NCBI RefSeq assembly: GCF_024502345.1
Contig: NZ_JALDNN010000001.1
DNA from: Escherichia coli
Lineage (GTDB): Bacteria; Pseudomonadota; Gammaproteobacteria; Enterobacterales; Enterobacteriaceae
Reading direction: 5' to 3' (one strand)
DNA: 64,000 nucleotides
The notes below the pieces were generated by a model that ran no database searches, was not told the origin of the DNA, and worked only from the letters and a program-made list of their open reading frames with translations. A program made the translations under genes and the position numbers. Shown here piece after piece: positions 3,481-50,363 of the stretch (its first letter is position 1; the number at the start of each line of letters is the position of its first letter).

Positions 3481-4113
3481 ATGTCACTGAGCAGAACTCA
3501 AATTGTTAACTGGCTCACTCGTTGTGGCGATATTTTCAACACCGAGAGCGAGTATCTTACCGGACTGGATCGCGAGATTGGCGACGCTGACCACGGGCTA
3601 AATATGAACCGAGGCTTTAGCAAAGTGGTGGAAAAACTCCCTGCTATCGCAGATAAAGATATCGGTTTCATTCTCAAGAATACCGGTATGACGCTGCTTT
3701 CCAGCGTCGGTGGTGCCAGTGGTCCGCTATTCGGTACCTTCTTTATACGCGCCGCACAGGCGACCCAGGCACGGCAAAGCCTGACGCTGGAAGAGCTTTA
3801 TCAGATGTTCCGCGATGGCGCGGACGGCGTAATCAGTCGCGGGAAAGCCGAACCTGGCGATAAAACCATGTGTGATGTGTGGGTGCCGGTGGTGGAATCG
3901 TTACGTCAGTCCAGCGAGCAAAATCTCTCTGTTCCGGCGGCGCTCGAAGCTGCCAGTAGCATCGCCGAATCCGCTGCACAAAGTACGATTACGATGCAAG
4001 CCCGCAAAGGCCGCGCCAGTTATCTCGGTGAACGCAGTATTGGTCACCAGGATCCCGGCGCGACCTCGGTGATGTTTATGATGCAAATGTTGGCGTTAGC
4101 CGCAAAAGAGTAA
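3481..4113 (+). CDS. dhaL: Dihydroxyacetone kinase, ADP-binding subunit DhaL
   Basis: MSLSRTQIVNWLTRCGDIF... 210 aa; GGAG Shine-Dalgarno just upstream (taaggagaaagcaATG). Confidence 0.95.
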   Translation: MSLSRTQIVNWLTRCGDIFNTESEYLTGLDREIGDADHGLNMNRGFSKVVEKLPAIADKDIGFILKNTGMTLLSSVGGASGPLFGTFFIRAAQATQARQSLTLEELYQMFRDGADGVISRGKAEPGDKTMCDVWVPVVESLRQSSEQNLSVPAALEAASSIAESAAQSTITMQARKGRASYLGERSIGHQDPGATSVMFMMQMLALAAKE

Positions 4114-4117
4114 GGAA

Positions 4118-5542
4118 TTGGTGATGGTAAACCTGGTCATAGTTTCACATAGCAGCCGACTGGGAGAAGGTGTCGGTGAATTAGCCCGTCAGATGTTAAT
4201 GAGTGATAATTGTAAAATCGCCATTGCTGCGGGAATTGACGATCCACAAAATCCCATTGGTACCGATGCCGTCAAAGTGATGGAGGCCATCGAATCTGTT
4301 GCCGATGCCGACCATGTGCTGGTCATGATGGATATGGGTAGCGCATTATTGAGTGCTGAAACTGCGCTGGAATTGCTGGCTCCCGAGATCGCCGCAAAAG
4401 TACGTTTGTGTGCTGCGCCGTTGGTCGAAGGTACACTGGCAGCAACGGTCAGCGCGGCCTCGGGTGCGGATATCGACAAAGTTATCTTTGACGCCATGCA
4501 TGCGCTGGAAGCCAAACGTGAACAACTGGGTTTACCGTCCTCCGACACTGAAATCTCTGACTCATGTCCTGCGTACGATGAAGAAGCCCGTTCTCTGGCG
4601 GTGGTCATAAAGAACCGTAACGGCCTGCATGTACGTCCAGCCTCCCGGCTGGTTTATACCTTATCGACATTTAATGCCGATATGTTGCTGGAGAAAAACG
4701 GCAAATGCGTCACACCGGAGAGTATTAACCAGATTGCGTTACTACAAGTTCGCTATAACGATACGCTGCGCCTGATTGCGAAAGGGCCAGAAGCTGAAGA
4801 GGCACTGATCGCTTTCCGTCAGCTGGCTGAAGATAACTTTGGTGAAACGGAGGAAGTTGCTCCACCTACTCTGCGTCCCGTTCCGCCTGTTTCGGGTAAA
4901 GCCTTTTATTATCAACCGGTTTTATGTACGGTACAGGCCAAATCAACCCTGACCGTGGAAGAAGAACAAGAACGATTACGCCAGGCCATTGACTTCACGT
5001 TATTAGATCTGATGACGTTAACAGCGAAAGCAGAAGCCAGCGGGCTTGACGATATTGCCGCAATCTTTTCTGGTCACCATACACTGTTAGATGATCCGGA
5101 ACTGCTGGCGGCGGCAAGCGAACTCCTTCAGCACGAACATTGCACGGCAGAATATGCCTGGCAGCAAGTTCTTAAAGAACTTAGCCAGCAATACCAGCAA
5201 CTGGATGATGAATATCTACAAGCTCGCTATATTGATGTGGACGATCTTCTGCATCGCACCCTGGTCCACCTGACCCAAACGAAAGAAGAACTCCCGCAGT
5301 TTAACTCGCCAACTATTCTACTGGCGGAGAACATTTATCCCTCCGCAGTACTGCAACTGGATCCGGCGGTTGTAAAAGGTATCTGCCTTAGCGCCGGAAG
5401 TCCGGTATCCCACAGCGCCCTGATCGCCCGTGAACTGGGGATTGGCTGGATTTGCCAGCAGGGTGAGAAACTGTATGCGATACAACCAGAAGAAAAGCTA
5501 ACGCTGGACGTTAAAACGCAACGTTTCAACCATCAGAGTTAA
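4118..5542 (+). CDS. dhaM: Dihydroxyacetone kinase phosphotransfer subunit DhaM (EIIA/HPr/EI-like)
   Basis: 474-aa ORF, MVNLVIVSHSSRLGEG...; start could be 4118 or 4124. Confidence 0.9.
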   Translation: MVMVNLVIVSHSSRLGEGVGELARQMLMSDNCKIAIAAGIDDPQNPIGTDAVKVMEAIESVADADHVLVMMDMGSALLSAETALELLAPEIAAKVRLCAAPLVEGTLAATVSAASGADIDKVIFDAMHALEAKREQLGLPSSDTEISDSCPAYDEEARSLAVVIKNRNGLHVRPASRLVYTLSTFNADMLLEKNGKCVTPESINQIALLQVRYNDTLRLIAKGPEAEEALIAFRQLAEDNFGETEEVAPPTLRPVPPVSGKAFYYQPVLCTVQAKSTLTVEEEQERLRQAIDFTLLDLMTLTAKAEASGLDDIAAIFSGHHTLLDDPELLAAASELLQHEHCTAEYAWQQVLKELSQQYQQLDDEYLQARYIDVDDLLHRTLVHLTQTKEELPQFNSPTILLAENIYPSAVLQLDPAVVKGICLSAGSPVSHSALIARELGIGWICQQGEKLYAIQPEEKLTLDVKTQRFNHQS

Positions 5543-5861: not shown

Positions 5862-7559
5862 ATGAAATCCCCCGCACCTTCTCGCCCGCAAAAAATGGCG
5901 TTAATTCCAGCCTGCATCTTTTTGTGTTTCGCTGCGCTATCGGTGCAGGCAGAAGAAACACCGGTAACGCCACAGCCGCCTGATATTTTATTAGGGCCGC
6001 TGTTTAATGATGTGCAAAACGCCAAGCTTTTTCCGGACCAAAAAACCTTTGCCGATGCCGTGCCGAACAGCGATCCGCTGATGATCCTTGCTGATTATCG
6101 GATGCAGCAAAACCAGAGCGGATTTGATCTGCGCCATTTCGTTAACGTCAATTTCACCCTGCCGAAAGAGGGCGAGAAATATGTTCCGCCAGAGGGGCAG
6201 TCACTGCGCGAACATATTGACGGACTTTGGCCGGTATTAACGCGTTCTACCGAAAACACCGAAAAATGGGATTCTCTGTTACCGCTGCCGGAACCTTATG
6301 TCGTGCCAGGCGGACGTTTTCGCGAGGTATATTACTGGGACAGTTACTTCACCATGTTAGGACTTGCCGAAAGCGGTCACTGGGATAAAGTCGCGGATAT
6401 GGTGGCCAATTTTGCTCATGAAATAGACACTTACGGTCATATTCCCAACGGCAACCGCAGTTACTATTTAAGCCGCTCGCAACCGCCCTTCTTTGCCCTG
6501 ATGGTAGAGTTACTGGCGCAGCATGAAGGCGATGCCGCGTTGAAGCAATACCTGCCGCAAATGCAAAAAGAATATGCTTACTGGATGGACGGTGTTGAAA
6601 ACCTGCAAGCCGGACAACAGGAAAAACGCGTTGTAAAACTTCAGGATGGTACCCTTCTCAACCGCTACTGGGACGATCGCGATACGCCACGACCAGAGTC
6701 ATGGGTGGAAGATATTGCCACCGCCAAAAGCAATCCGAATCGACCTGCCACTGAAATTTACCGCGACTTGCGCTCTGCCGCTGCGTCTGGCTGGGATTTC
6801 AGCTCGCGCTGGATGGACAACCCGCAGCAGTTAAATACCATACGCACCACCAGCATCGTACCGGTCGATCTGAACAGCCTGATGTTTAAAATGGAAAAAA
6901 TTCTCGCCCGCGCCAGCAAAGTTGCCGGAGATAACGCGATGGCAAACCAGTACGAAACGCTGGCAAATGCCCGTCAAAAAGGGATCGAAAAATACCTGTG
7001 GAACGATCAACAAGGCTGGTATGCCGATTACGACCTGAAAAGTCATAAAGTGCGCAATCAGTTAACCGCTGCCGCCCTGTTCCCGCTGTACGTCAATGCG
7101 GCAGCGAAAGATCGCGCCAGCAAAATGGCGACGGCGACGAAAACACATCTGCTGCAACCCGGCGGCCTGAACACCACGTCGGTGAAAAGTGGGCAACAAT
7201 GGGATGCGCCAAATGGTTGGGCACCGTTGCAGTGGATCGCGACAGAAGGATTACAAAACTACGGGCAAAAAGAGGTGGCGATGGACATTAGCTGGCACTT
7301 CCTGACCAATGTTCAGCACACCTATGACCGCGAGAAAAAGCTGGTGGAAAAGTATGATGTCAGCACCACCGGAACGGGGGGCGGCGGTGGCGAATATCCA
7401 TTACAGGATGGCTTTGGCTGGACCAATGGCGTGACGCTGAAAATGCTGGATTTGATCTGCCCGAAAGAGCAACCGTGTGACAATGTTCCGGCGACGCGTC
7501 CACTCAGTGAATCAACAACACAGCCGGTAAAACAAAAAGAGGCGGAACCTACGCCTTAA
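5862..7559 (+). CDS. treA: Periplasmic trehalase TreA
   Basis: 565 aa from [11 protein letters not shown]..., signal peptide plus glycoside hydrolase 37 body; matches remembered TreA except a slightly different C-terminal tail. Confidence 0.95.
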
Positions 7560-7588
7560 CTTTGCTGTATATCGAGGCTGTATATCGA

Positions 7589-7629
7589 GCAATGCCATTA
7601 TGTGCATAAAATTGGCATTGCTCTTTTTT
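7589..7629 (+). terminator. Rho-independent terminator downstream of treA
   Basis: Stem GCAATGCCA / TGGCATTGC with a 15-nt loop followed by TCTTTTTT. Confidence 0.55.
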
Positions 7630-7853
7630 CGCCACGAAATGCCCCCCACTCTACGGTCTATGCCTTTATTTTCTTTTATTAGAGAAGATTTTAATTTTAT
7701 TTTATCAATTTGTTAATCATTACACCTCTATTTATATTTTTCGCCACTCCGCCATTCTCCCTGACAATTTTCTTGTGGAACAAAGTGTTATTTAAGCAAC
7801 AAGCAAATCACTCTGTCTCTTTAGACAAATTTTGACATCAAACATGATTTTTT

Positions 7854-7877
7854 CGATATATATGTAAATATATAGCG
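7854..7877. promoter_or_regulatory. AT-rich dyad CGATATAT-atgtaa-ATATATAGCG, candidate ModE-type (molybdate-responsive) operator 25-48 bp upstream of the accessory operon start
   Basis: Contains TATAT-N7-TATAT flanked by CG; 20 of 24 positions self-complementary; resembles the ModE operator consensus as I recall it. Confidence 0.35.
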
Positions 7878-7901
7878 GTTTTAATTATCAGGATATAACT
7901 T

Positions 7902-8924
7902 ATGTCACTAACCAGACGGAGGTTTACACAGATTCTTGCGTCGACGTTGTTCCTGCATCATCTGCCTTCTTTTGCACAATCAGTCAAATTCTGGGCCTCA
8001 CTGACGCTTCCCGAAGCCCAAAACATTACACGCATCGTCAGCGCAGGTGCGCCCGCCGATTTGCTATTGCTGGCTGTCGCGCCAGAAAAAATGGTCGGTT
8101 TTTCCTCTTTTGATTTTGCCCGTCAGGCATTAATTCCATTGCCAGAGCACATTCGCCAGTTACCCAGGCTGGGACGACTCGCCGGGCGCGCCAGCACACT
8201 CTCGCTGGAAGGGCTTATGGCGTTACATCCCGATTTGGTCGTTGATTGCGGCAATACGGATGAAACCTGGATCTCCCAGGCACGGCAGGTTAGCGAACAG
8301 ACACAAATACCCTGGTTATTGCTTAACGGGAAACTGGCGCAATCAGCAGAACAGTTAACAACGCTTGGCAAAACGTTAGGCGAAGAGCATCGCGCCGCAG
8401 AACAAGCCAATCTCGCCAGCCGCTTCGTTGGTGAAGCTCAGGCATTCGCCGCCTCACCCGCCGCTAACCTCCGCTTTTATGCTGCGCGCGGTCCTCGAGG
8501 GCTGGAAACGGGCTTAAAGGGTTCGTTGCATACCGAGGCGGCGGAATTATTAGGTTTGCACAACGTCGCGCAAATAGCCGATCGCCACGGCCTGACACAG
8601 GTTTCCATGGAAAATCTCCTGCGCTGGCAGCCGGATATTATTCTGGTTCAGGAGGCCGTTACTGCAGATTTTATTCGTCGTGATCCTCTCTGGCATGGCG
8701 TGAAAGCCGTTGCGGAACAACGCATCTTATTTTTAAGTGGCTTGCCCTTTGGCTGGCTGGATGCCCCACCGGGAATCAACCGTCTTCTGGGATTACGCAG
8801 ACTTCACGCCTGGCTGGATCCCGCCATCAATCGCCAGTTTAAAAGTGACATGCAGCATTACGCCCAACTGTTCTGGCATTGTTCACTCAGTGACGCCGAC
8901 TATCAAAAATTGGTGGCGAGCTAA
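7902..8924 (+). CDS. Periplasmic substrate-binding protein, FecB/BtuF-like (class III), with twin-arginine-like N-terminus
   Basis: 340 aa; N-terminus MSLTRRRFTQILASTLFL... (RRxF Tat-like motif followed by hydrophobic stretch); first gene of a tightly packed operon. Confidence 0.8.
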   Translation: MSLTRRRFTQILASTLFLHHLPSFAQSVKFWASLTLPEAQNITRIVSAGAPADLLLLAVAPEKMVGFSSFDFARQALIPLPEHIRQLPRLGRLAGRASTLSLEGLMALHPDLVVDCGNTDETWISQARQVSEQTQIPWLLLNGKLAQSAEQLTTLGKTLGEEHRAAEQANLASRFVGEAQAFAASPAANLRFYAARGPRGLETGLKGSLHTEAAELLGLHNVAQIADRHGLTQVSMENLLRWQPDIILVQEAVTADFIRRDPLWHGVKAVAEQRILFLSGLPFGWLDAPPGINRLLGLRRLHAWLDPAINRQFKSDMQHYAQLFWHCSLSDADYQKLVAS

Positions 8925-9922
8925 TGAGAATCGTAAACGGATGTATTTTGCTGCTGGCAGCTATCAGTATCACTTTTGCCGCCGTAAGTGGGGCTTATCA
9001 TCTCGATATGCAGCAACTGCTGGCGCTAATTCTTCGTCAAGAAAATGTTCCTGTGCAGGAACAAATTGTCTTCTGGCAAATCCGCGTGCCGCGTATTCTT
9101 GCTGCGCTGTTACTGGGCGCGGCGCTGTTACTGGGCGCGGCGCTGGCAGGAGCCGGAACCACTTATCAGGGAATGTTGCGTAATCCCTTAGTTTCACCGG
9201 ATATTTTAGGCGTCTCCGCCGGTGCCGGACTTGGTGCCTGCGCGGCAATCCTGTGGGGATTATCCATTGTTTACATCCAGCTGTACGCATTTTGCGGCGG
9301 GCTGATGGTGGTCGCGGGCGTCTGGTTGATTACGCGTCGGGTGACCCGCCACGATCCGATCTTAACCCTGGTGCTGGTAGGCATTGCGTTAGGAACGTTG
9401 TGCGGAGCGGGGATATCGCTAATTAAAACGCTGGCCGATCCTTACACCCAGTTACCGTCAATTACCTTCTGGTTGCTGGGGGGACTGTCCACCGTGACCT
9501 TACGCGATCTCTGCTATGCTGCACCGATCATTCTCATTGGCTCCTTGCCCCTGTTTTTTCTCCGCTGGCGCATGAATTTACTCACGCTTTCCGACGACGA
9601 AGCCCGTTCGCTGGGACTGAACGTGACGCGTCTGCGCTTTGGATTGATTGTCTGCGCCACACTAATCACCGCCAGTACGGTAGCAATAGCGGGCATAATT
9701 GGTTGGGTCGGCCTGGTCGTTCCGCACATTGCCCGCTTGTTGACCGGTCATAACCATCAGCAGCTGTTGCCCATGGCAATGTGTACTGGCGCGATTCTGC
9801 TCCTGCTGACCGATACGCTGGCACGCAGCATTGGAACAACAGAAATCCCACTTGGCATTCTGACCGCTTTTGTTGGCGCACCGTTTTTCCTGCTTTTGTT
9901 GTTACGCGGAGGTCGCCAGTGA
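8924..9922 (+). CDS. ABC transporter permease, FecCD/BtuC family
   Basis: 332 aa, highly hydrophobic multi-TM protein; start overlaps the upstream stop (ATGA-type junction). Confidence 0.85.
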   Translation: MRIVNGCILLLAAISITFAAVSGAYHLDMQQLLALILRQENVPVQEQIVFWQIRVPRILAALLLGAALLLGAALAGAGTTYQGMLRNPLVSPDILGVSAGAGLGACAAILWGLSIVYIQLYAFCGGLMVVAGVWLITRRVTRHDPILTLVLVGIALGTLCGAGISLIKTLADPYTQLPSITFWLLGGLSTVTLRDLCYAAPIILIGSLPLFFLRWRMNLLTLSDDEARSLGLNVTRLRFGLIVCATLITASTVAIAGIIGWVGLVVPHIARLLTGHNHQQLLPMAMCTGAILLLLTDTLARSIGTTEIPLGILTAFVGAPFFLLLLLRGGRQ

Positions 9923-36689: not shown

Positions 36690-36956
36690 ATGGCATTACT
36701 CGATTTCTTTCTCTCGCGGAAGAAAAATACAGCCAACATTGCAAAAGAACGGCTGCAGATTATTGTTGCTGAACGCCGTCGCAGCGATGCAGAACCGCAT
36801 TATCTGCCGCAGTTGCGTAAAGATATTCTTGAGGTCATTTGTAAATACGTACAAATTGATCCTGAGATGGTAACCGTACAGCTTGAGCAAAAAGATGGCG
36901 ATATTTCTATTCTTGAGCTGAACGTGACCTTACCGGAAGCAGAAGAGCTGAAATAA
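36690..36956 (+). CDS. minE: Cell division topological specificity factor MinE
   Basis: 88 aa, [31 protein letters not shown]... Confidence 0.95.
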
Positions 36957-36982
36957 TCCCGCTGTAAAAGCGCATTTATCTT

Positions 36983-37013
36983 CAAGGCAGAGTTATCTCT
37001 GCCTTGAGTTTTT
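36983..37013 (+). terminator. Rho-independent terminator after minE
   Basis: CAAGGCAGAG-ttat-CTCTGCCTTG followed by a T-run. Confidence 0.7.
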
Positions 37014-37103
37014 CATCCCTCTCATCCACGTTGTGGTAAAGCGGCGAGTATTCTTGCTGATACTCCTCATTGCTATTTCCACCTCCCCCTTTACACCTTA
37101 AGG

Positions 37104-38160
37104 GGCTTTGTTGAATAAATCGAACTTTTGCTGAGTTGAAGGATCAGATCACGTATCTTCCCGACAACGCAGACCGTTCCGTGGCAAAGCAAAAGTTCAA
37201 AATCACCAACTGGCCCACCTACAATAAAGCCCTCATCAACCGTGGCTCCATAACTTTCTGGCTGGATGATGAAGCTATTCAGGCCTGGTATGAGTCAGCA
37301 ACACCTTCTTCACGAGGCAGACCTCAGCGCTATTCTGACCTTGCCATCACGACTGTGCTGGTCATTAAACGCGTATTCAGGCTGACCCTGCGCGCTGCGC
37401 AGGGCTTTATTGATTCCATTTTTTCTCTGATGAACGTTCCGCTACGCTGCCCGGATTACAGCTGTGTCAGCAGGCGGGCAAAGTCGGTTAATGTCAGTTT
37501 CAAAACGCCCACCCGGGGTGAAATCGCACACCTGGTAATTGATTCCACCGGGCTGAAGGTCTTCGGTGAAGGCGAGTGGAAAGTCAAAAAGCATGGCCAG
37601 GAACGCCGCCGTATCTGGCGTAAGCTGCATCTCGCCGTTGACAGTAAAACACATGAAATCATCTGCGCTGACCTGTCGCTGAACAACGTTACGGACTCAG
37701 AGGCCTTCCCCGGGTTAATCCGGCAAACCCACCGGAAAATCAGGTCAGCCGCCGCCGATGGCGCTTACGATACCCGGCTATGTCACGATGAACTGCGGCG
37801 TAAGAAAATCAGCGCGCTTATCCCTCCCCGAAAAGGTGCGGGTTACTGGCCCGGTGAATATGCAGACCGTAACCGTGCAGTGGCTAATCAGCGAATGACC
37901 GGGAGTAATGCGCGGTGGAAATGGACAACAGATTACAACCGTCGCTCGATAGCGGAAACGGCGATGTACCGGGTAAAACAGCTGTTCGGGGGTTCACTGA
38001 CACTGCGTGACTACGATGGTCAGGTTGCAGAGGCTATGGCCCTGGTACGAGCGCTGAACAAAATGACGAAAGCAGGTATGCCTGAAAGCGTGCGTATTGC
38101 CTGAAAACACAACCCGCTACGGGGGAGACTTACCCGAAATCTGATTTATTCAACAAAGCC
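37104..38160 (+). mobile_element. IS903-like insertion sequence (IS5 family, IS903 group), copy 1, 1057 bp, no target-site duplication
   Basis: 18-bp terminal inverted repeats GGCTTTGTTGAATAAATC at both ends; internal transposase; flanking 9-mers differ (ACCTTAAGG vs ATCGTGCAC). Confidence 0.9.
37181..38104 (+). CDS. IS903-type DDE transposase
   Basis: 307 aa from a GTG start (VAKQKFKITNWPTYNKALINRGS...); matches the remembered IS903 transposase from Tn903. Confidence 0.85.
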   Translation: MAKQKFKITNWPTYNKALINRGSITFWLDDEAIQAWYESATPSSRGRPQRYSDLAITTVLVIKRVFRLTLRAAQGFIDSIFSLMNVPLRCPDYSCVSRRAKSVNVSFKTPTRGEIAHLVIDSTGLKVFGEGEWKVKKHGQERRRIWRKLHLAVDSKTHEIICADLSLNNVTDSEAFPGLIRQTHRKIRSAAADGAYDTRLCHDELRRKKISALIPPRKGAGYWPGEYADRNRAVANQRMTGSNARWKWTTDYNRRSIAETAMYRVKQLFGGSLTLRDYDGQVAEAMALVRALNKMTKAGMPESVRIA

Positions 38161-38208
38161 ATCGTGCACACTACGCAGTCTCACAACTAACAAGAGGTTA
38201 TTATCCTG

Positions 38209-38613
38209 ATGGATCAGGTCGTTGTTTTTCAAAAGATGTTTGAGCAAGTGAGAAAAGAGCAAAACTTCTCCTGGTTTTATTCAGAATTAAAACATCACCG
38301 TATTGCACATTACATTTATTATCTGGCTACGGATAACATCAGAATTATTACTCACGATGACACGGTTTTGTTATTAAGAGGAACCAGGAACCTGTTAAAA
38401 GTTAGTACGACCAAGAACCCTGCTAAAATAAAAGAGGCCGCATTGCTTCATATTTGCGGAAAATCTACATTTCGGGAATACTGTTCAACACTGGCAGACG
38501 CGGGCGTTTTCCGTTGGGTTACTGATGTTAATCATAACAAACGCAGTTACTACGCCATTGATAATACGCTTTTATATATTGAAGATGTAGAAAATAATAA
38601 ACCATTAATCTAG
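38209..38613 (+). CDS. ycgX: Hypothetical protein YcgX (DUF1398-like)
   Basis: 134-aa ORF with AGAGG Shine-Dalgarno; size and position next to iraM match K-12 ycgX; sequence identity not independently confirmed. Confidence 0.6.
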   Translation: MDQVVVFQKMFEQVRKEQNFSWFYSELKHHRIAHYIYYLATDNIRIITHDDTVLLLRGTRNLLKVSTTKNPAKIKEAALLHICGKSTFREYCSTLADAGVFRWVTDVNHNKRSYYAIDNTLLYIEDVENNKPLI

Positions 38614-38819
38614 CTAAAGTTGGATGCTTAAGAAATGCTTCATAATTCAGTATGGCATTAGCATAATGGGAATAAAAGTACAGAGACTATCCCTATGGAT
38701 GATAAATACTGTCCTTTTATTGCTACCCATAAATAATCACCTGGCCAATACTATCAAATTGATATTTGAAATGTGATCACTTGACTTTCTATACGTTATT
38801 TCATAACGTTTAATATATT

Positions 38820-38870
38820 TATAAAAACAACGGGCGTGCCATACGCCCGTTTCAATACTTAACGCACATG
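38820..38870. repeat. Second copy of the icd-terminator-like ~50-bp element (AACAACGGGCGTG..ATACGCCCGTTT..AATA.TTAAC.CACATGT)
   Basis: Near-identical to the sequence at 39690-39734 immediately 3' of icd, including the GGGCG/CGCCC hairpin. Confidence 0.5.
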
Positions 38871-39308
38871 TGTTTTGGTTTAGTCATCATCCAGTTATAT
38901 GTATTTTAGCCAGGAACAGGTTAAACCTTTCCTATATAACTCAAAAATTGAAACCTTATTCTCATGTCATGCTTATATTCATTATTATCGTTATATAAAA
39001 AGGCAACCATAATGTTTAGCAAATTGGCACAAAGTAGCATAAAGGCTATGTTTTAATTACAGGATGGTCAGTCATTTGAATGTATAACATTATAGCTAAA
39101 CAAATCTAAAACGAAGTGAATAATTTATTGTTTTCACTAAATCTCATTTTGTTTAACATCCATTGAGATTCCTTGCTTTAAATTTTGTTTTATATAAGCA
39201 ATTGTTTTAATTAATTTATTTTTTGAAGGGGTAATATACTCATATGCAAAATAAAGAAATGAACATCCAAATGAACTATATTAAATACCGTGGGATAAGA
39301 CATAACAA

Positions 39309-39632
39309 ATGAAGTGGGTAGTAATTGACACGGTAATTCAACCTACATGCGGCATATCTTTTTCAGCCATATGGGGTGATATGAAAATGATTATCTGGTA
39401 TCAATCTACTATATTTCTTCCTCCTGGAAGTATATTTACACTGGTTAAGCCTGGTATTATCCTTAAGGATAAAGAATATCCTATAACTATTTATAACATT
39501 GCACCATTCAACAAGAATTTATGGAGTTTACTCAAAAGCAGTCAAGAGTGTCCTCCAGGAGAAAGCGAAATAACAAATAAATGTTTGCATAAGAGTTGTA
39601 TTATAAAAATATGCCCATATGGGCTCAAGTAA
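39309..39632 (+). CDS. iraM: Anti-adaptor protein IraM (inhibitor of RssB-mediated RpoS degradation)
   Basis: 107 aa, [41 protein letters not shown]...; matches remembered IraM with a few substitutions; lies in very AT-rich DNA. Confidence 0.8.
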
Positions 39633-39689
39633 TGGGTTTTATATAAATATGCTCGATATGCTATTAATAATATCCACATAAATAAAACA

Positions 39690-39722
39690 ACGGGCGTGTT
39701 ATACGCCCGTTTAAATATTTAA
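39690..39722. terminator. Bidirectional rho-independent terminator shared by icd and iraM
   Basis: AACGGGCG-tgttatac-CGCCCGTT hairpin with A/T runs on both sides, immediately 3' of the icd stop. Confidence 0.7.
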
Positions 39723-39734
39723 CACATGTAGTGA

Positions 39735-40985
39735 TTACATATTTTTGATGATCGCATCACCAAACTCTGAACATTTCAGCAGTTTAGCGCCTTCCATCAG
39801 ACGTTCGAAGTCATAGGTTACGGTCTTCGCATTGATTGCGCCTTCCATACCTTTAACAATCAGGTCTGCGGCTTCGGTCCAACCCATGTGGCGTAACATC
39901 ATCTCAGCAGAGAGAATAATAGAACCTGGGTTAACTTTGTCCTGACCGGCATATTTCGGCGCAGTACCGTGGGTGGCTTCAAACAGGGCGCATTCGTCAC
40001 CGATGTTTGCACCAGGGGCGATACCGATACCGCCAACCTGCGCTGCCAGGGCGTCAGAAATGTAGTCACCGTTCAGGTTCATACAGGCGATAACATCATA
40101 TTCAGCCGGACGCAGCAGGATCTGTTGCAGGAATGCATCAGCAATCACGTCTTTAATGACGATCTCTTTGCCGGTATTCGGGTTTTTAACTTTCAGCCAC
40201 GGGCCGCCGTCGATCAGTTCACCGCCAAATTCTTCACGCGCCAGCTGGTAGCCCCAGTCTTTAAACGCGCCTTCGGTGAACTTCATGATGTTGCCTTTGT
40301 GCACCAGGGTCACAGAGTCACGATCGTTAGCAATTGCGTATTCGATCGCTGCACGAACCAGACGTTTGGTGCCTTCTTCAGAACACGGCTTAATACCGAT
40401 ACCGCAATGTTCCGGGAAGCGAATTTTCTTCACGCCCATCTCTTCACGCAGGAATTTAATCACTTTCTCGGCGTCGGCAGAGTCAGCTTTCCATTCGATA
40501 CCCGCATAAATGTCTTCCGAGTTTTCACGGAAGATAACCATATCGGTCAGTTCAGGGTGTTTAACCGGGCTTGGAGTGCCCTGATAGTAACGTACCGGAC
40601 GCAGGCAGATGTAGAGATCCAGTTCCTGGCGCAGGGCAACGTTCAGAGAGCGAATACCGCCACCAACCGGAGTGGTCAGCGGGCCTTTAATGGCAACGCG
40701 ATATTCACGAATCAGATCAAGGGTTTCAGCAGGCAGCCAGACATCCTGACCATAAACCTGTGTGGATTTTTCACCGGTGTAAATTTCCATCCAGGAGATT
40801 TTACGCTCGCCTTTATAGGCTTTCTCGACTGCAGCGTCGACCACTTTCAGCATGGCTGGGGTTACATCTACACCGATTCCATCACCTTCAATGTAAGGGA
40901 TAATCGGATTTTCAGGAACGTTGAGTTTGCCGTTTTGCAGGGTGATCTTCTTGCCTTGTGCCGGAACAACTACTTTACTTTCCAT
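39735..40985 (-). CDS. icd: NADP-dependent isocitrate dehydrogenase (intact native 3' end, no e14-type replacement)
   Basis: 416 aa, [30 protein letters not shown]... ending ...GDAIIKNM. Confidence 0.95.
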
Positions 40986-49000: not shown

Positions 49001-49075
49001 GCCGGATGTGGCGCTGATTGCGCCTTATCGTGCCTACATGCACTGAACGCCTGTAGGCACGATAAGTATGTGGAC
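49001..49075. repeat. REP-like palindromic repeat(s) between roxA and pepT
   Basis: GCCGGATGTGGCGCTGATTGCGCCTTATC and GCCTGTAGGCACGATAAG resemble the REP consensus. Confidence 0.45.
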
Positions 49076-49133
49076 CAGTGTCAATATAACGGTTTCATCC
49101 CGGTAATTGGCAGTCCACATACGCATCGGGCAA

Positions 49134-50363
49134 TCACGACTTCCGTTGCGCCGTTAACTCGGCAATACGGACGATCACCTGCACCGCTTTTTCCATACCT
49201 TCCAGAGTCACAAACTCATGCTTACCATGATAGTTGTAACCGCCAGTGAACAGGTTCGGGCACGGTAATCCCATAAACGACAACTGCGCGCCGTCGGTAC
49301 CACCGCGGATCGGTTTCAGTTCCGGTTCAATATCGCAGTCACGCATCGCCTGCTGGGCGATATCGAGAATATGCGGATGCTCAACCACTTTCTCGCGCAT
49401 ATTGTAGTAACTGTCTTCAATCACCAATTCAATGTAGCAATCAGGATGTAACCCTTTGCCCACTTTTTTGGCGATCTCCATCATTTTACGTTTACGCGCT
49501 TCAAACTGTTTACGGTCGAAATCACGGATGATGTAGTGCATATCGGCCCGTTCAACGGTGCCTTTCATGCTCGCCAGGTGATAGAAACCTTCATAGCCTT
49601 CTGTCATTTCCGGGCTTTCATCCGCCGGAACTTCCGCATGAATACGTGCCGCCAGCGACAGCGCATTTACCATCACTCCTTTCGCCGTACCCGGGTGAAC
49701 ATTGTTACCGACAATTTTGATATTGACCGACGCGGCGTTGAAGTTTTCAAACTCCAGTTCGCCTACGCCACCACCATCAACAGTGTAAGCCCAGCGGGCA
49801 TCGAAGGCGTCAACATCAAAATGTTTCGCCCCTTTGCCCACTTCTTCATCCGGGGTAAAGGCGACGCGAATATCACCATGCGGAATGTTTTTCTGTTGCA
49901 ATACCGCCAGCGCGGTCATGATTTCTGCAATACCGGCTTTGTCATCGGCACCTAACAAGGTTTTACCATCGGTAGTAATCAGCGTCTGACCCAGTAGCTG
50001 ATGCAGCACCGGGAACATAACCGGTGATAAAACTTCATCGCCGATACCCAGCGCAATATCGCCACCGCGATAGTTTTCAACAATTTGCGGATTCACATTT
50101 TTGCCGCTGCAATCCGGTGAGGTATCCACATGAGAAATAAAGCCAATCGCCGGGATATCGCCAGGGACGTTAGCCGGTAACGTCGCCATCAAAGTGCCCT
50201 TCTCACTTAAGGTCACATTGATAAGCCCCATCTCTTCGAGCTGCTCTTTCAGCAGATGCAATAACTTCCATTGGCCTTCCGTGCTGGGAACCTGTCTCAC
50301 CCCTGCTTTTGATTGGGTATCCAGAGACACGTAGTTCAAAAATCGCTCAAGTAGTTTATCCAT
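49134..50363 (-). CDS. pepT: Peptidase T (tripeptide aminopeptidase)
   Basis: 408 aa from [22 protein letters not shown]... Confidence 0.95.

Follow-up and report, generated by a model that had tools for sequence, protein, structure and literature searches.

In the 64,000-nucleotide stretch of an Escherichia coli contig analyzed here (the window), a complete IS903B element lies between minE and ycgX and lacks a 9-bp target-site duplication. The locus raises the question of how this arrangement arose: whether minE and ycgX are naturally adjacent and the IS was merely inserted between them, whether the element marks the loss of DNA that once separated the two genes, and by which route such DNA would have been removed.

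The IS903B copy between minE and ycgX and its flanks

The features of the junction, of the genes on either side and of a second IS903B copy in the window are listed in Table 1. A preliminary description of this DNA had reported a complete 1057-bp IS903 with intact inverted repeats and transposase, with the minE terminator on its left and the start of ycgX about 50 bp to its right. The repeats, the open reading frame and a profile match confirmed the element, and the distances to its neighbors were 95 bp (hairpin) and 48 bp (ycgX).

Table 1. Window coordinates of the minE-ycgX junction, its retained neighbors and the second IS903B copy.
Feature	Position	Strand	Basis or remark
minE, last retained gene on the left	36690..36956	+	ORF and K-12 alignment
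Terminator-like hairpin after minE, intact	36981..37008	+	12-pair stem followed by TTTTT; 95 bp left of the IS
Left flanking 9-mer ACCTTAAGG	37095..37103	.	Last base is K-12 position 1,224,132, 147 bp after the minE stop
IS903B, complete, 1057 bp	37104..38160	+	Perfect 18-bp inverted repeats and 99.7-99.9% identity to RefSeq-annotated IS903B
Left terminal inverted repeat GGCTTTGTTGAATAAATC	37104..37121	+	Exact match
IS903B transposase gene, 307 aa, GTG start, uninterrupted	37181..38104	+	ORF and NF033579
Right terminal inverted repeat, same 18-mer GGCTTTGTTGAATAAATC	38143..38160	-	Exact match
Right flanking 9-mer ATCGTGCAC	38161..38169	.	First base is K-12 position 1,213,155, in the bluR-ycgX intergenic region
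ycgX (DUF1398), first retained gene on the right	38209..38613	+	ATG at 38209, 48 bp right of the IS
iraM, retained	39309..39632	+	NF007393, anti-adapter protein IraM, 168 bits
icd, intact, e14 attachment site empty, without icdC remnant	39735..40985	-	ORF and K-12 alignment
Second IS903B copy, inside ycfZ, about 45 bp in	54991..56047	+	9-bp duplication CCTCTGACG at 54982-54990 and 56048-56056

The transposase matched NCBIfam NF033579 (IS5 family transposase) with 357.6 bits against a cutoff of 140, and the match spanned profile positions 1-289 of 289. Over its full length the element was 99.7-99.9% identical to copies in complete E. coli genomes that RefSeq labels "IS5-like element IS903B family transposase." The 18-mer GGCTTTGTTGAATAAATC occurred four times in the window, compared with 0.05 occurrences expected from shuffles; the four occurrences were both ends of two IS903B copies. 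By sequence, the junction element is IS903B (IS5 family, IS903 group).

The 9-mers beside the junction IS, ACCTTAAGG and ATCGTGCAC, had been described as different, and indeed only 3/9 positions match, which is the chance level. A degenerate or offset duplication, a possibility left open in the preliminary description, was absent: shifting either side by 0-3 bases never gave an agreement above 3/9, and the longest word shared between the 30-nt flanks was 4 nt.

The second IS903B copy in the window served as an internal control. It lies 17.8 kb from the junction copy in the same orientation, shows 0/1057 differences from it, and is bounded by a perfect 9-bp duplication (CCTCTGACG). Perfect 9-bp duplications were also found at IS903B in strain GD33 (ATCTGAACC) and at two IS903B copies in strain EA7 (CCCTCTCAT and CCTGGATCA). 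Because all four of these control insertions are flanked by perfect duplications, the missing duplication at the junction IS is real and exceptional. The two identical copies within 18 kb show that IS903B was recently active in this strain. A search for another IS903 copy carrying the matching half-site had been suggested; within the window the only other copy was the one at 54991, and its own perfect duplication ruled it out as the carrier of the reciprocal half-sites.

The second copy disrupts ycfZ, which encodes a TPM-domain protein, beside ymfA, and this insertion was shared by 0 complete E. coli genomes. The remainder of ycfZ downstream of it forms a 235-aa open reading frame from position 56084, which is used as a gene call in some public assemblies. 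An exact-protein look-up of this YcfZ C-terminal frame and of YcgX found both to be common and widespread, and every context returned had the normal layout.

On the right side of the junction, the window retains ycgX, ymgL/K, iraM, and icd. Upstream of ycgX, 48 of the original 220 bp are kept, including the ribosome-binding region, and 172 bp are lost. The gene now lies 3' of the transposase gene and is read in the same direction. No sigma-70-like site was detected by consensus scans, either within the ancestral bluR-ycgX spacer or directed outward from the right end of the IS.

The ycgX-ymgL-ymgK-iraM stretch (38161..39700) has a GC content of 33%, compared with 50% for the window, and is the part most diverged from K-12 (95.3% identity, compared with 98-99% for the flanks). 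A phage-associated origin has been suggested for this region (PMC3509220), and its AT-richness and divergence are consistent with such an origin.

Extent and derived status of the missing interval

The window was collinear with E. coli K-12 MG1655 from dhaR to mfd, in reverse orientation. The left flank aligned through window position 37103 (K-12 1,224,132), and alignment resumed on the right at window position 38161 (K-12 1,213,155). The K-12 interval 1,213,156-1,224,131, comprising 10,976 bp, is thus absent from the window at the junction. The preliminary description had given roughly 10 kb of genes between minE and ycgX in K-12 and had proposed alignment to reference genomes as a check; the interval above is the outcome. 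Compared with ZF8-1, which likewise lacks e14, the gap was 11,005 bp with the same endpoints.

In the K-12 and ZF8-1 alignments alike, both flanks stopped flush with the ends of the IS, and a single IS sits exactly at the junction. In the ancestral arrangement the left breakpoint falls directly between ACCTTAAGG and CTGTTCCCA, and the right breakpoint directly between GTAAAACCG and ATCGTGCAC. The two ancestral breakpoints share no homology.

Going by the K-12 annotation, the lost genes are: bluR, bluF, ycgZ, ymgA, ariR, ymgC, pdeG, ymgF, ycgH, ymgD, ymgG, ymgI, ymgJ, and ycgI. The lost block has a GC content of 42%, compared with 50% for the window. A blastn search of the 11-kb block against the window gave 0 matches, ruling out a block that had moved within the window rather than been lost.

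Whether minE and ycgX stand side by side in other genomes was assessed with an IS-less synthetic junction query made of 1 kb from each flank, using a joining distance of about 1.5 kb, against 5,426 complete E. coli genomes. Both halves of the query were present in nearly all genomes, and the minE and ycgX flanks lay within about 1.5 kb of each other in 0/5,426. The block itself was present at a coverage of at least 80% in 4,730 of the 5,426 genomes. Using the real junction as query, 0 complete E. coli genomes were found that covered 80% or more of it. The closest available genomes were 99.4-99.5% identical to the flanks, i.e., none was a clonal relative, and ZF8-1 and ECNB21-M121 carried the block intact with no IS inside it. 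For the exact YcgX protein, bluR was directly upstream in 10/10 public contigs returned.

Since none of the 5,426 genomes has minE beside ycgX and 4,730 keep the block, the minE-ycgX layout is, by genome comparison, derived and not natural. Natural adjacency of the two genes, the counter-case named in the preliminary description, was thus sought and found in none. This exact junction, absent from every collection searched, is new; the event itself, an IS-mediated deletion by a well-known element, is ordinary.

The e14 prophage had also been mentioned in connection with this junction. In K-12, e14 is inserted at the 3' end of icd, with an icdC remnant beside iraM. In the window the ycgX-iraM-icd-rluE stretch is uninterrupted, as it is in 2,990 of the 5,426 complete E. 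coli genomes. The intact icd and the uninterrupted ycgX-icd stretch ruled out a link between the junction IS and the absent prophage: the absence of e14 is an empty attachment site 1.5 kb from the IS and is unrelated to it. The earlier placement of e14 in icd beyond iraM in K-12 was correct, but its placement at the IS junction was not, the attachment site lying 1.5 kb to the right.

Other segments of the window also differed from K-12. Between treA and ymgE, where K-12 has ycgY, there is a 6.8-kb segment (7520..14322) that is absent from K-12 and also occurs in the closest relatives, according to their annotations. It encodes a periplasmic binding protein, a BtuC/FecCD-like permease, an ABC ATPase, a SAM-methyltransferase-like protein, ModD (501 bits), and a TonB-dependent receptor, and its predicted products suggest an accessory cluster for the uptake of a metal, corrinoid or siderophore. 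A 1.9-kb segment (19101..21029) lies between dadX and cvrA, a place occupied in K-12 by no more than a partial IS1414 and ymgM. This segment encodes a 478-aa leucine-rich-repeat protein that is weakly similar to the LRR part of the SlrP/SspH2 effectors and appears as "leucine rich repeat family protein" in the annotation of relatives. Lastly, megablast gave no K-12 alignment for about 125 bp (49012..49139) located between the roxA and pepT counterparts.

Routes to the junction

Adjacent deletion and recombination between direct copies are the textbook sources of an IS that lies flush with a deletion and has no duplication. The IS903B junction is very probably the scar of a real IS-mediated deletion. 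The preliminary description had proposed that an IS903-mediated adjacent deletion or recombination removed the block, and the flush flanks, the lack of a duplication and the absence of the adjacency from all 5,426 genomes support that proposal. The acting mechanism, the anchor side and the number of steps, one or several, are what we infer from this end product. As to the route, an adjacent deletion by IS903 specifically is given an even chance.

In an adjacent deletion, one IS903B would first insert at one of the present breakpoints, generating the normal 9-bp duplication there. By intramolecular replicative transposition, the transposase would then link the ends of the IS to a new target some 11 kb distant on that chromosome. 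A non-replicating circle made up of the DNA in between and a second IS copy would be split off and lost. The end state would be one IS between the original target 9-mer and the new target 9-mer, hence an IS without a duplication. A precursor anchored on the left would carry ACCTTAAGG joined to the IS903B left end and the IS903B right end joined to ACCTTAAGGCTGTTCCCACG; one anchored on the right would carry AAAACCGATCGTGCAC joined to the IS903B left end.

This route is favored because it requires fewer events (one insertion and one transposition) and because adjacent deletions are common for IS903, where they depend on the replicative (cointegrate) pathway (PMC11708052). In the same study, 14/14 duplication-less IS-plus-deletion events from three populations of the long-term evolution experiment were traced to adjacent deletion from a pre-existing IS, the element there being IS150 and not IS903. 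No precursor at either breakpoint was found in the 5,426 complete E. coli genomes, among which the best available identity was 99.5%, and the exact 35-36-nt junction patterns gave 0 matches in the genome_contigs and metagenome_contigs collections.

A second route starts from two like-oriented IS903B copies, located 147 bp after minE and 48 bp before ycgX and each with its own duplication. RecA-dependent recombination between them would excise the block and leave a hybrid IS, and the product would be exactly as observed. Both this route and adjacent deletion convert the order L-T1-M-T2-R into L-T1-IS-T2-R, so the final sequence does not separate them. Since the strain's copies do not differ in sequence, a hybrid IS could not be recognized.

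The genome carries multiple copies of identical IS903B, and IS903B insertions in the neighborhood in other strains (two in EA7, one each in GD33 and FAHZZU7007) make a two-copy intermediate plausible. The top megablast matches (H1-H5) were all IS903B insertions at positions other than the junction, H4 and H5 being judged by coordinates only. In GD33 the element (L002 6001..7057) lies in the bluR-ycgX spacer, 135 bp further from ycgX than the window copy. In EA7 the first element (L003 6427..7483) lies 70 bp past the stop codon of minE; relative to the window copy it is 77 bp nearer to that gene. The second EA7 element (L003 12448..13504) lies near ymgF and is inverted relative to the first; both are inside the block. 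In FAHZZU7007 the element (L024 about 3595..4651) lies between ymgK and iraM, downstream of ycgX. The minE-to-iraM interval may be a local hot region for IS903B, as judged from strains that were found with these same flanks as the query. The strains with IS903B in this neighborhood are IS903B-rich and come from China (duck, pig, and human).

Recombination between IS copies is quite plausible because this AT-rich neighborhood repeatedly gains IS903B, and it has been named as a frequent cause of missing duplications (PMC11708052). Nevertheless, it requires three events, two of them like-oriented insertions within 11 kb, and neither precursor insertion was found at the exact sites in complete E. 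coli genomes, genome_contigs or metagenome_contigs. The two EA7 copies do not provide a model for it either, as they are mutually inverted and would invert the segment between them, not delete it. On balance, recombination between two direct copies is a possible origin of the junction, though a less likely one than adjacent deletion.

The junction could also be an artifact in which the assembler collapsed a true IS903B-block-IS903B arrangement and skipped the block. Identical 1057-bp repeats are a classic cause of mis-joins, and 0 other genomes have this junction. The same 64-kb window, however, resolves two identical copies at a distance of 17.8 kb and places each between correct flanks in unique sequence. 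The resolved copies argue for a long-read or finished assembly, which would probably span an 11-kb block. No fragment of the block occurs anywhere in the window, and IS-bounded loss of the block is real in other finished genomes. An assembly artifact is accordingly improbable.

Smaller still is the probability that the junction is a natural-isolate example of one-step capture, in which IS903B would have been integrated into a deletion break without staggered target cleavage and hence without a duplication. Such a mechanism was proposed for a deletion reported with IS5 (IS903 subgroup) in E. coli C (PMC11708052), and the form is the same here: an IS amid a deletion, with no duplication and no homology between the breakpoints. 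A static sequence cannot show a single step, however, and the classical routes account fully for the data.

Excision of an IS-block-IS arrangement as a composite transposon was rejected by reasoning, since one intact IS linking the flanks is not what loss by cut-and-paste would leave behind.

Natural adjacency of minE and ycgX with an IS merely inserted between them can be dismissed: some lineages, including O157:H7, do lack the block (PMC3509220), but the flanks lie within about 1.5 kb of each other in 0/5,426 genomes, ycgX too is absent from O157:H7, whose junction is a separate one with IS1203, a simple insertion would have left a 9-bp duplication, and in comparison with block-carrying genomes both flanks stop exactly where the IS begins and ends.

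Lost functions and comparison with other IS-bounded losses

The block removed at this junction contained the BluF/BluR blue-light and cold-sensing module and the YcgZ-YmgA-AriR connectors to the Rcs system. PdeG, YmgF, the YcgH autotransporter, YmgD, YmgG, YmgI, and YmgJ were also lost. None of the genes in the block is essential. From established knowledge and published work, BluF antagonizes BluR and so lifts its repression of ycgZ-ymgABC, whose products act on both the Rcs system and curli (PMC3509220). As the sensor-repressor pair and the effectors are both gone, the whole input is lost rather than deregulated. Judged by gene content, the strain would be without the pathway that ties blue light and low temperature to curli, colanic acid and acid resistance; the phenotypes of the lost genes are not to be extrapolated from K-12.

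The event is an ordinary, well-understood route of gene loss and involves no new mechanism or gene family. IS903B is better known from plasmids and from the disruption of mgrB in Klebsiella; at this locus it takes an active part in reshaping the chromosome of an E. coli strain.

Losses of the same block downstream of minE with an IS at the junction were found in two other genomes. In 22AR0118 (NZ_CM132257.1; L005 6699..7458), IS1A joins the ymgJ region to ymgK, and about 11.1 kb is lost, from ymgJ through ycgX and ymgL. In O157:H7 strain 2017C-4109 (NZ_CP030767.1; L006 about 10570..12232), IS1203 (IS629) follows a ycgI-like autotransporter remnant and is in turn followed by ompT and prophage-derived DNA; homology ends about 570 bp beyond the left breakpoint of the window. 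The absence of bluR-bluF-ycgZ-ymgAB from O157:H7 had already been recorded (PMC3509220).

In ZF8-1 locus positions, the left breakpoints are 7804 (window), 8503 (22AR0118) and 8373 (O157:H7), and all three fall within about 700 bp downstream of minE. This clustering fits deletions that would be tolerated only up to the min operon. That three unrelated IS (IS903B, IS1A, and IS1203) removed the block may be due to selection, in some niches, against the blue-light/Rcs connector module. The window adds a further independent IS-bounded loss and lends slight support to the view that some lifestyles can do without the module or are even better served by its absence (PMC3509220).

The losses in 22AR0118 and O157:H7 resemble that in the window in the block affected and in the IS left at the junction. 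They differ in IS family and in endpoints, and both also lose ycgX, whereas the window keeps it. The O157:H7 junction, in contrast to that of the window, runs into prophage-derived DNA.

Compared with known IS903B, the junction copy is alike in length, inverted repeats, 307-aa transposase (DDE class by profile match) and sequence. The sole difference is the lack of a 9-bp duplication, which is a matter of history; because a duplication reflects the insertion event and not the identity of the element, membership in IS903B stands. Compared with the adjacent deletions described for IS903 (PMC11708052), the junction differs in that an anchored precursor was not found here and in that recombination between IS copies gives an equal structure. 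It agrees with them in the single retained IS, the deletion flush with its end, the lack of a duplication and the lack of homology at the far breakpoint.
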